Shown here piece after piece: positions 32,705 to 44,220 of a stretch of 64,000 bases of DNA. Every line of letters begins with the position of its first letter. Positions within the stretch are counted from its first letter, which is position 1. The notes beneath the pieces are model-generated. The model saw nothing but the letters and a program-made list of their open reading frames with translations, was not told the origin of the DNA and made no database searches. This DNA comes from Myxococcota bacterium. Its GTDB lineage: Bacteria > Myxococcota_A > UBA796 > UBA2385. Position numbers and translations under genes: made by a program. The stretch is taken from the NCBI GenBank assembly GCA_044344255.1, contig JBIJDH010000014.1, positions 96,001 to 160,000 of the forward strand. The letters run 5' to 3'.

Positions 32705-33376
32705 TCAATCGTCGATGATGGGGTCAGCGTCGAGGAGGATCCACTGGCCGCTGTTGCCCTGCGCGAGGAAGCGGCTCGTGCCCCAGTCTGCGGCCCACCA
32801 CCAGTCGGCGGCGAAGAGCGGGCCGGAGTTCGGGTCCCCGTCGCCGTCGTCGACCTTGATGTGCACACACTCCCAGACGTCCTCATCGGTGTCGGTCACC
32901 CAGAGGTTGGGGCAGTCCTCCTGGCCCACGTAGGTGGTGGAGAAGGTGCTGCCGCCCGTCTCGGTCTCGATGACGTCGTCCACCGTCATGGTGGCCTCGG
33001 CCACGATCACCGGGGGATCGTAGGTGGTGGTGGTGCCGGTGAGCTGGTCGGTCATGCTGTGGACGAGCACGCCGTCGGAGCTGTCGCTCGACCAGACGAT
33101 GCTGGTGAGGAGCTGCACCGAGGGCTTGCTGAGCGCATAGTCGAGGGTGACGAGCTCGCGGTCCCCGTCCTTCTGGGTGACGGGGTTCTTGTCCACCGTC
33201 ATCTGCTTGCCTTCGGCGTCCCCGTCGAGGGCGTACTCCCAGTGGGGCTCGCCGTAGAGGGGGAAGTAGTCCGACAGCTTCTGACCTTCGTAGGTGTAGC
33301 CGCCGCCCTTGCAGGCCGAGCCGAGCAGGAGGGCCGCCAGGGCAAGAGCGGGGAGAGTGCCTAGGTGGGTGCGCAT
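32705..33376 (-). CDS. Hypothetical beta-rich lipoprotein
   Basis: LLLGSAC lipobox; YFPL..WEY...YDPP...WW.AADWG pattern; GGAG SD. Confidence 0.75.
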   Translation of the reverse strand: MRTHLGTLPALALAALLLGSACKGGGYTYEGQKLSDYFPLYGEPHWEYALDGDAEGKQMTVDKNPVTQKDGDRELVTLDYALSKPSVQLLTSIVWSSDSSDGVLVHSMTDQLTGTTTTYDPPVIVAEATMTVDDVIETETGGSTFSTTYVGQEDCPNLWVTDTDEDVWECVHIKVDDGDGDPNSGPLFAADWWWAADWGTSRFLAQGNSGQWILLDADPIIDD

Positions 33377-42300: not shown

Positions 42301-44220
42301 GAGGTCGAGGGCGCCGGCCACACAGGCCGCGGCGATCTCTCCCGTGCTGTGACCGAGCACCGCGGACGGGCGGAGGCCCTTGCTCTGCCAGAGCGCGGCG
42401 GTGGCGATGTCGAGCGCGATGATGCACGGCAGGCTGAGCGCGATCTGCCCGAGCGCCGAACGACCGGCGCCGCCCACGAGCTCATCCACCACCGACCGGC
42501 CGAGGAGGCGGCGGACGTGGAGGTCGCAGGCCTCGATCACGCGCCGGAACACGGGCTCGGTGGCGAACAGCGCCCGCCCCATCCCGGCCCACTGGGCGCC
42601 CTGGCCGGGGAAGAGGAGGGCGACGCCGCCGGTCGTCCGGGGTCCCCCCGCCGGCGCCGCGGTGGCCCGGGCGACCCCCTCCACGATGACGTGGCCGTTC
42701 GTGCCGCCGAGGCCGAAGGCGCTCACCCCGGCGAGGAGGGGCCGCTCCGGGCTCGGGAAGGGCCGGGCCGCGGTGGGGACCTCGAGCTGCAGACCGTCGA
42801 GGTCGATGGCCGGGTTTGCGCGGTTGAAGTGCAGGTTCGGCGGGACGGACCGGTGGTGGAGGGAGAGCACCGCCTTCATCAACCCCACCATCCCAGCGGC
42901 CCCCTCGAGGTGGCCCACGTTGGTCTTGGCCGAGCCGACCAGCAGCGGCGCCGCGCGATCGCCACCGTAGGCCGCGCCGAGGGCCCGGGCCTCGATGGGG
43001 TCGCCGAGGGGGGTGCCGGTGCCGTGGGCCTCGACGAGCTGGACCTCCGCGCCCGAGACCCCCGCCGCCGCGCAGGCCGCGCGGATGAGGGCCGCCTGGG
43101 CGTCCGGGTTCGGCGAGGTCAAGGAGGCGCTGGGGCCGTCGTTGTTGATCGCGCTCCCGCGCAGCAGGCCGTGGATCCGGTCGCCGTCGCGGAGGGCGTC
43201 CGAGAGCCGCTTGAGCACCACCACGCCGCCGCCCTCACCCCGCACGTACCCATCGGCCCCCACGTCGAAGGTGCGGCAGCGGCCCGTCAGGGAGAGGGCG
43301 CCGAAGCGCGCCACGCTCACCGCGCTCTCCGCGAGCAGGTTGAGGTTGACGGCGGCCACGAGCGCGAGGCGGCCCTCCCCGCGGCGGAGGCCCTCGCTCG
43401 CGAGGTGGAGGGCCACGAGGGCGGAGGAGCAGGCGGCGTCGACGGTGAGGCTCGGGCCGTGCAGCCCGTAGAGGTAGGAGATCCGATTGGCGATGATGCT
43501 GTGGTGCCAGCCGGTGACCGCGTACTGGTCCACCCGCTCGACGCCCGCACGGTCGACGAGCATGGCGTAGTCCGACCAGATCGCCGCGGCGTAGACGGCG
43601 GTGCGGCTCCCCTGGAGCGCGCCCGCAGGCAGGCCGGCGTCCTCCAGCGCCTCCGCGCAGAGCTCGAGCGCGAGGCGCTGCTGGGGGTCCATCGCGCTCG
43701 CCTCCCGGGGAGAGAGGCCGAAGGCGTAGGGGTCGAAAGCATCGACGCCCTCGATCCACCCGCCCCACTGAACCCGCGCCGCCTCCGCCTCCGAGCGGGC
43801 CAGCCGGCGCCAGTCGGCGGGCCAGCGGTCGGCCGGGACGGGGGTGATCGCGTCGACGCCGCCGTGGAGGAGCGCCCAGAAGGCGTCGGTGTCGGCGGCG
43901 CCGGGGAAGCGACAGGCCATGCCGATGATGGCGATGGGCTCATCGTCCTGGCCCACGTCCCCCTCCGAGGCCCGCTCCGCCGCGATGACGGGGCCGCCCA
44001 CGAGGTGCCGCACGAGGCGGGTGATCGAGCCGTGCTCGAAGAGGTCCACCGGAGAGACGCTCCGCCCGAGGGCCTCGCCGAGCCGCGACGCGAGTCGGGT
44101 GAGCCCGAGCGAGGAGAGCCCCATCGACACGAAGCCGGCCTGGGGGTCGATGCGCGCGGTCGGGAGCAGCTCCTCTCGGAGCGCCTCGGTCAGCCAGGTG
44201 GTGAGCGTGCGCGCGTCCAT
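33361..44220 (-). CDS. Type I polyketide synthase: ACP-KS-AT-AT-DH-ER-KR-ACP-KS-(AT-less)-ACP-thioester reductase
   Basis: GLSSL (loading ACP); DAACSS/HGTGT/GHLE (KS1); GHSTGE (AT1); [10 protein letters not shown] (AT2); [10 protein letters not shown] (DH); HAGTGGVG (ER); [16 protein letters not shown] (KR); GVDSL; DTACSS/HGTGT (KS2); [18 protein letters not shown] (R). ATG 44220 has a GGAG SD. Confidence 0.95.

Follow-up and report, generated by a model that had tools for sequence, protein, structure and literature searches.

A self-contained two-module polyketide synthase from a freshwater Myxococcota bacterium whose second module has lost its acyltransferase

How does a polyketide synthase (PKS) build its product when one of its modules has no acyltransferase (AT) and the whole assembly line is a single protein? 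The question is raised by P0001, a protein of 3619 amino acids (aa) encoded at 33361..44220 (minus strand) of a 64,000-nucleotide (nt) stretch of DNA from a Myxococcota bacterium (GenBank assembly GCA_044344255.1, contig JBIJDH010000014.1, positions 96,001 to 160,000; this whole stretch is referred to as the window). An initial annotation, made from the sequence alone, had presented it as a stand-alone hybrid cis/trans-AT PKS ending in a reductase. Our tentative answer is that P0001 is a two-module cis-AT PKS of the myxobacterial type in which the AT of module 2 was lost, that the remaining extender AT (AT2) likely loads the acyl carrier proteins (ACPs) of both modules, and that the product would be a short, doubly methyl-branched 3-oxo-aldehyde or the corresponding alcohol.

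P0001 is encoded by a single open reading frame (ORF) that starts as in the protein collection's version, with GGAG located 6 nt 5′ of the ATG. Pfam matches (two ketosynthases (KSs), two ATs, a dehydratase (DH), an enoylreductase (ER), a ketoreductase (KR), three ACPs and NAD_binding_4) together with motif scans gave the domain order ACP0-KS1-AT1-AT2-DH-ER-KR-ACP1-KS2-linker(no AT)-ACP2-R, where R is a thioester reductase. This is the architecture of the initial annotation, and every motif quoted there was present in the one ORF. All domains lie on the minus strand. The loading ACP, ACP0 (43987..44220, GLSSL), is followed by KS1 (42661..43944), with Cys/His/His intact in DAACSS/EAHGTGT/KTNVGH, by AT1 (41671..42618; GHSTG, ICAYAR and VCPH) and by AT2 (40411..41403; GHSMG, RSR and VASH). 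The DH (39451..40323) carries HxxxGxxxxP and has its His and Asp, with the Tyr of YGP changed to His; YTETK was also among the motifs found in the protein. The ER (37786..38733) has an intact NADPH motif, the KR (37186..37743) is B-type (LDD) with Lys, Ser and Tyr present, and ACP1 (36691..36933) closes module 1. Module 2 consists of KS2 (35266..36549), a fused linker (34846..35265) and ACP2 (34591..34833, GLDSL). The C-terminal R (33451..34527) is of the short-chain dehydrogenase/reductase (SDR) type and retains TGxxGxxG and YxxxK, in line with the reductive release proposed earlier. With both a loading ACP and a terminal R, the protein is self-contained.

Alignment of module 2 with four cis modules showed that the KS-AT linker runs directly into the post-AT linker at 34846-35265. 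Approximately 320 aa, corresponding to the AT core only, have been deleted in frame; both linker halves are kept, and the remainder is 37-40% identical to the four cis modules. KS2 has intact Cys/His/His, and retains the His of ETHGTGT, the residue lost in non-elongating KS0 modules. When KS2 was compared with 949 KSs extracted from the homologous proteins found, its best non-self identity was 61.7% to KSs that are followed by an AT versus 52.6% to KSs of AT-less proteins. We then placed it in a FastTree phylogeny of 107 selected KSs (cis and AT-less rows, both nearest neighbors and randomly drawn ones, the KSs of contig C17 of the host genome, where a trans-AT cluster resides, and eight tandem KS1s). 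KS2 was nested in an otherwise all-cis myxobacterial clade (support 1.0), far from the 11 KSs of C17, with P0070 KS2 and P0006 KS1 as its sisters (0.927). We therefore rejected a trans-AT origin of KS2, and the label "hybrid cis/trans-AT" does not hold as a statement of lineage. Among the traits of trans-AT synthases, P0001 has the fused linker without an AT core, but its KS2 lies outside their KS clades and the protein is neither AT-less throughout nor clustered with a free AT. An AlphaFold model of KS2-ACP2, built from 6 sequences, reached a pLDDT of 65.9 and had an rmsd of ~17 to all matches, too poor a fit to lend support. Judged by these comparisons of sequence, module 2 is a cis-AT module that lost its AT by deletion and not a trans-AT graft.

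The missing AT is genomic, since contigs from other sequencing runs, protein variants and a related fragment all share it. The exact protein occurs on 5 contigs of the collection, within a cluster of 8. One contig of run X17 spans 31677-45284, X14 and X17 each cover 33361-36900 without a break, and a piece from X12 (33693-36540) has zero differences. Three other full-length variants, with differences in 33, 34 and 38 columns, likewise have no AT in module 2, nor does P0239, a 1314-aa fragment that is 93% identical overall. On this evidence we rejected an assembly deletion, the pitfall that the initial annotation had named. Identity to P0239 is 98.1% in KS2, 97.8% in R, 91.4% in ACP2 and 89.3% in the post-KS2 linker; the most variable part (68%) is the repetitive, Pro/Ala/Val-rich linker between ACP1 and KS2 (36544-36690).

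Module 2 also shows purifying selection. Of 26 differences listed relative to X17, we dropped nine: two in which the contig's KS1 had been aligned to KS2 (both absent from every variant protein), six next to an indel in the linker between ACP2 and R, and one in ACP1. From one pair of close strains and without a mutation-bias model, module 2 plus R then had 12 synonymous and 5 non-synonymous changes (pN/pS 0.16, binomial p 3e-4), and KS2 alone had 7 and 4 (pN/pS 0.21, p 0.012).

No free AT came with the gene. The PKS lies between a host lipoprotein gene, lipoA (32705..33376, minus strand), whose sequence overlaps the PKS end by 16 nt, and the divergent host glycerol kinase gene glpK (44535..46007, plus strand). 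The few named relatives of glpK are mostly assigned to Myxococcota or Deltaproteobacteria, with one assigned to Alphaproteobacteria, which points to an uncultured Myxococcota host. Of 22 relatives, 21 have a match to lipoA. In 8 of the 10 relative neighborhoods compared, in a selection that favored longer contigs, lipoA and glpK are immediate, divergent neighbors. A pattern search of these eight intergenic regions revealed two back-to-back motifs, the one facing lipoA matched in seven and the one facing glpK in six. In the window the same motifs, which may act as promoters, now flank the PKS (at ~33404 and ~44508), so the PKS entered alone between them: GTGCTACC (33396..33405, minus strand), facing lipoA from inside the last PKS codons, marks the left boundary of the insertion, and GTGCTAG upstream of glpK marks the right one. 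The PKS frame reads through host sequence into the lipoA overlap. The gene is thus a single-gene insertion. Its neighbors encode glycerol kinase, an SDR, a small methyltransferase, a glutathione S-transferase and lipoproteins, and we detected no other PKS or nonribosomal peptide synthetase (NRPS) among the scanned genes of the window, which bears out its description as stand-alone. Third-position GC is 0.93-0.97 for each PKS domain and 0.92-0.98 for host genes, so the insertion is either old or came from a similar donor.

As far as our searches reach, the PKS is restricted to one species group of a freshwater bacterium; they cover top hits and are no proof of absence. We found no orthologue in 40 relatives among the matches listed (the best was 37% identical, over ACP-R only). 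None of 153 other genomes of the order gave an AT1 match at E<=1e-55 (up to 14 candidates scored in each); across the phylum, 2 of 400 genomes did so at E<=1e-62 (5 candidates per genome). Of the 23 runs listed, 20, from 16 studies, contained no less than half of the words sampled from 33361-38000; all of these are lake, freshwater or river metagenomes, and six are marked as runs from which this DNA may have come.

We then asked what module 1 would deliver to KS2. The N-terminal order, together with the grouping of the ATs, identifies the mixed ACP-KS-AT-AT loading module that had been recognized earlier. KS1 shares 55-65% identity with most KSs from other proteins of the ACP-KS-AT-AT type and is sister to KS1 of P0130 from Polyangium spumosum (FastTree support 0.994). 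P0001 and P0130 also share a short KS1-AT1 junction: AT1 is only ~20 aa from KS1 because a linker of ~100 aa, present in four other relatives, is absent. In a tree of 68 tandem ATs with SH-aLRT support, AT1 fell within a 15-row clade of first-position (tandem starter) ATs (SH-aLRT 99) with the signature GHSTG..IC[AM][YQ]..xPH..HWVRN. It has Tyr at the position of the Arg of AT2, as expected for the starter AT that had been proposed. VCPH had been taken as a sign of unusual specificity, but xPH is the signature of the whole clade; AT1 sits on a long branch (0.89 versus a median of 0.22), so it may still select an unusual starter.

The AT1 clade includes ATs of Chondromyces crocatus CAJ46689.1, the probable CmdA, with an acetyl starter, and of Nannocystis ALD82521.1, the probable nannocystin PKS. 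The first AT of MiuA has been proposed to load acetyl-CoA (PMC10051162), and nannocystin and SorA are cited in a review for benzoyl-CoA starters (PMC5655351). We considered a benzoyl starter for P0001 since the clade holds the Nannocystis protein. In the host genome (8.18 Mb, 95% complete) no benzoate-CoA ligase scored above the cut-off (best 242 versus 375 bits). Its two aromatic-amino-acid lyases, tandem paralogues at G000:C42:130872-133996, both look histidine-ammonia-lyase-like, going by an SH/GH motif. The genome thus shows no sign of benzoyl supply, and a benzoyl starter is neither supported nor excluded.

AT2 grouped in a nine-row DVASH clade that includes an AT of CAJ46689.1 (SH-aLRT 99). 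VASH is a documented methylmalonyl motif (PMC7327777), and methylmalonyl-CoA is reported to be used by cmdA/cmdB (PMC12397197). Both the motifs and the clade agree with the earlier prediction that AT2 is specific for methylmalonyl-CoA, and the host genome encodes methylmalonyl-CoA mutase-family, carboxyltransferase and phosphopantetheinyl transferase (PPTase) genes. Module 1 as a whole is 47-49% identical to four ACP-KS-AT-AT-DH-ER-KR-ACP relatives of ~2,700 aa, with which the DH, ER and KR catalytic residues align. One of these, in genome G255, is the first protein of a three-module line in which every extender AT is DVASH and a thioesterase comes last; this fits module 1 as a collinear first module. 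That line (L195-L196, G255:C1:4974218-4994235) is an orphan cluster whose end reads ACP-thioesterase-hydrolase, with the last ACP in a separate frame. The Tyr of LGAYP in the ER of P0001 may be the (2S)-determining Tyr52; this tentative mapping forms no part of the mechanism below. The rule itself is stated in PMC7327777.

The catalytic steps that we propose are predictions from these domains and motifs. AT1 would place a non-carboxylated acyl-CoA starter (R-CO) on ACP0, and AT2 would charge ACP1 with methylmalonyl. KS1 would condense once, and KR, DH and ER would fully reduce the product to R-CH2-CH(CH3)-CO-. KS2 would accept this chain and condense it with a second methylmalonyl on ACP2, loaded by AT2 of the same protein or of the partner protomer. 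R would then release R-CH2-CH(CH3)-CO-CH(CH3)-CHO or the alcohol; an acetyl starter would yield 2,4-dimethyl-3-oxohexanal. We favor loading of ACP2 by AT2 on the grounds that KS2, which belongs to the cis lineage, is both intact and conserved, and that no free AT came with the gene. Two-module proteins with one AT that end in R recur among the homologues (P0030, P0273, P0280, P0259 and P0311, of unknown function). The bgc34 cluster (PMC13454183), with two ATs in its first module and an AT-less third one, is a further precedent in that a heterologous host carrying it yields products.

Several observations weigh against this assignment, in which the action of AT2 on ACP2 is itself deduced from sequence. 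Relative to P0239, the domains that have changed most are the post-KS2 linker and ACP2 (89 and 91% identical). The selection signal comes from one close strain pair, and an intact His over so little divergence is no proof of condensation. Moreover, 7 of the 17 changes cluster in 53 bp (35331-35383), perhaps as one recombination tract, and without them 7 synonymous and 3 non-synonymous changes are left. The genome holds two free malonyl-type ATs, an AT-ER on C17 and a FabD-like protein on C42, and free ATs are reported to rescue an AT-null cis module, module 6 of 6-deoxyerythronolide B synthase (DEBS; PMC6164871). Loading in trans is plausible because fully AT-less relatives of the R-terminated proteins exist (P0003 and P0250). 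Finally, for the AT-dead modules of the conglobatin (PMC4504003) and irumamycin (PMC11672594) synthases, the authors propose that the preceding module iterates.

Those same working hypotheses treat AT-dead cis modules as non-extending, and they lead to the explanation that competes best with ours, although we consider it somewhat unlikely: KS2 would be a pass-through or gatekeeper that hands the reduced 2-methyl-acyl diketide to an unloaded ACP2, and R would release R-CH2-CH(CH3)-CHO or the alcohol (2-methylbutanal or 2-methylbutanol from acetyl, 2-methyl-3-phenylpropanal from benzoyl). This requires no unusual AT-ACP pairing, agrees with a module 2 that has neither an AT nor reductive domains, and would account for the purifying selection on KS2 as well. 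However, KS2 retains HGTGT, the His of which non-elongating KSs usually lack. In addition, a direct ACP-R ending after a reducing module is common among the homologues, so the extra KS-ACP would be dispensable if the chain were only passed on.

Less probable still is loading of ACP2 with malonyl by the host FabD or the C17 AT-ER, after which KS2 would add a C2 unit to give R-CH2-CH(CH3)-CO-CH2-CHO or the alcohol. This would make P0001 a cis/trans hybrid in function and comes close to the trans-loaded final extension that the initial annotation gave as its second option. The two free ATs of the genome and the DEBS precedent are consistent with it, as are the resemblance of the fused linker to the compact region behind trans-AT KSs and the AT-less KS-ACP-R units in proteins without any AT (P0240-P0242, P0269 and P0301). 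Nevertheless, KS2 lies outside the trans-AT lineage, the insertion brought no AT, and the C17 AT is encoded on a different contig beside an assembly line of its own.

The initial annotation had preferred an iterating module 1, as in mycocerosate synthase, that would make a long saturated chain with several methyl branches, its length being selected by KS2 before reductive release. A methylmalonyl AT with a full DH-ER-KR set would suit such a reaction, some myxobacterial modules are known to iterate (those for stigmatellin and crocacin, as cited in PMC4504003), and bgc34 is described as yielding branched fatty acids (PMC13454183). Yet KS1 clusters with first-module KSs of tandem-AT lines, the relative in G255 with the same module 1 opens a collinear line that ends in a thioesterase, and the flanks are host genes, the insertion having brought no lipid acyltransferase or transporter; we therefore regard iteration as improbable. 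It is yet more improbable that P0001 is the decaying remnant of some larger cluster, or depends on partner modules elsewhere, and makes nothing alone: it is confined to one species group and its DH and AT1 are divergent, but the 10.9-kb frame is intact in four full-length versions with the pN/pS of 0.16 given above, its third-position GC is host-like, loading ACP and release domain are both present, and the other KSs of the genome are at most ~48% identical. The predicted product is most likely an aldehyde or alcohol with a short, branched di- or triketide chain.

Several related synthases differ in their AT content. P0030, P0280 and P0273, with one AT, and P0003 and P0250, with none, share the order (AMP-ligase-ACP-)KS-AT-KR-ACP-KS-DH-ER-KR-ACP-R. 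A family of ~3,000 aa with the order AMP-ligase-ACP-KS-(no AT)-ACP-R-C(partial)-A-PCP-R, which has two R domains, one of them internal, likewise comes in AT-less and AT-containing versions (P0240, P0241, P0242, P0244 and P0247 versus P0245 and P0048). Side by side, the one-AT and AT-less versions suggest that AT loss has been repeated in reductase-terminated, lipid-type PKSs. P0327 is an AMP-ligase-initiated PKS that ends in a KS, a degenerate AT, a sulfotransferase and R; olefin synthases carry a sulfotransferase-thioesterase at the position of its sulfotransferase-R.

Other loci of interest lie elsewhere in the host genome. C17 (G000:C17:113237-180755) encodes a large trans-AT PKS/NRPS (6812 and 7113 aa), the free AT-ER and a PPTase, together with P450-, monooxygenase- and transporter-like genes, judged by their N-termini. 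A cis-AT PKS (ACP-KS / AT-KR-ACP) at G000:C51:5593-10850 has its KS split over two frames with a piece seemingly gone, and is either a pseudogene or an assembly error. Two adjacent R-domain proteins of 1263 and 1551 aa, of which the first also has an AMP-binding domain, lie beside another acyl-CoA ligase at G000:C24:56597-65048 and may form a lipid-reduction operon. In the window itself, two uncharacterized lipoprotein-like genes are located at 32263-33376 (minus strand), of which lipoA has no Pfam match, and three FG-GAP repeat proteins are encoded at 18008-20332, 29099-31258 and 47396-49507 (plus strand), two of them with Cu-binding_MopE-type repeats.

How AT-less or AT-dead cis modules work (through a shared AT, a free AT or pass-through) has usually been argued from the structures of compounds made by large clusters. 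P0001 confines the problem to a single gene that supplies its own loading and release domains and is compact enough for expression as a whole and for mutation of single domains, and a myxobacterial PKS chassis has been described (PMC13454183). It is possible, though we put it slightly lower than the mechanism alone, that a whole pathway is contained in one 11-kb gene, that one embedded AT serves both modules after a natural AT deletion, that the strongly diverged AT1 picks an unusual starter, and that a small branched 3-oxo-aldehyde results. If this reading is true, P0001 would be the smallest natural system in which to test how cis modules share an AT, and its product would be an unknown volatile or signal made by widespread freshwater Myxococcota. 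A two-module, R-terminated PKS is in any case a ready scaffold for branched aldehydes and alcohols. Since every part is familiar and a small molecule is the probable product, the surprise is limited.

A search for the same architecture returned no equal among 377 other (non-self) proteins or, among the matches listed, in 932 plus-strand ORFs of 159 loci, nor is the exact arrangement described in the literature found; MIBiG and subscription journals lay outside the search. Two proteins that appeared to be of the AT-AT..R type were rejected because their ATs are split or partial. The closest parallels to the first module are the myxobacterial PKSs with mixed loading modules (SorA, MtaB, the myxalamid and chondramide lines, and MiuA), which have the same ACP-KS-AT-AT order with divided AT roles (PMC10051162, PMC5655351). 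They open multi-gene lines, whereas P0001 is a whole line in one protein with an AT-less module 2 and R. AT1 and AT2 are 49 and 62% identical to those of CAJ46689.1, and AT1 is 51% identical to that of ALD82521.1. The uncharacterized P0130 of Polyangium spumosum (WP_170319936.1) has the sister KS1 (65%) and the short KS1-AT1 junction; its AT2 is likewise of the DVASH type and its KS2 falls in the clade of P0001 KS2, but it retains AT-DH-ER-KR in module 2 and lacks an R domain. By its published description, the bgc34 cluster of Archangium violaceum SDU8 pairs a module 1 that has two ATs with a module 3 that lacks one, and it is productive in Myxococcus xanthus; it differs in comprising three megasynthases over ~40 kb, in ending in a KS and in making branched unsaturated fatty acids (PMC13454183). 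Among solved structures, R is closest to MxaA R (PDB 4U7W, E 1e-60), followed by a PKS reductase (PDB 8V1X, E 7e-47). Unlike R of P0001, MxaA R follows an NRPS module. Trans-AT PKSs and cis/trans hybrids, such as those for kirromycin and enacyloxin, likewise have AT-less modules and a compact post-KS linker; P0001 differs in the cis lineage of KS2, in the lack of a linked free AT and in holding both module types in one protein. Mycocerosic acid synthase shares the loop and the AT motif in the same KS-AT(methylmalonyl)-DH-ER-KR-ACP order, but it is a single module without the loading ACP, second AT, second KS and R of P0001, which has two KSs, two ATs and three ACPs. P0001 is thus a new arrangement of familiar myxobacterial parts and no new kind of machine, and each of its elements has a precedent.

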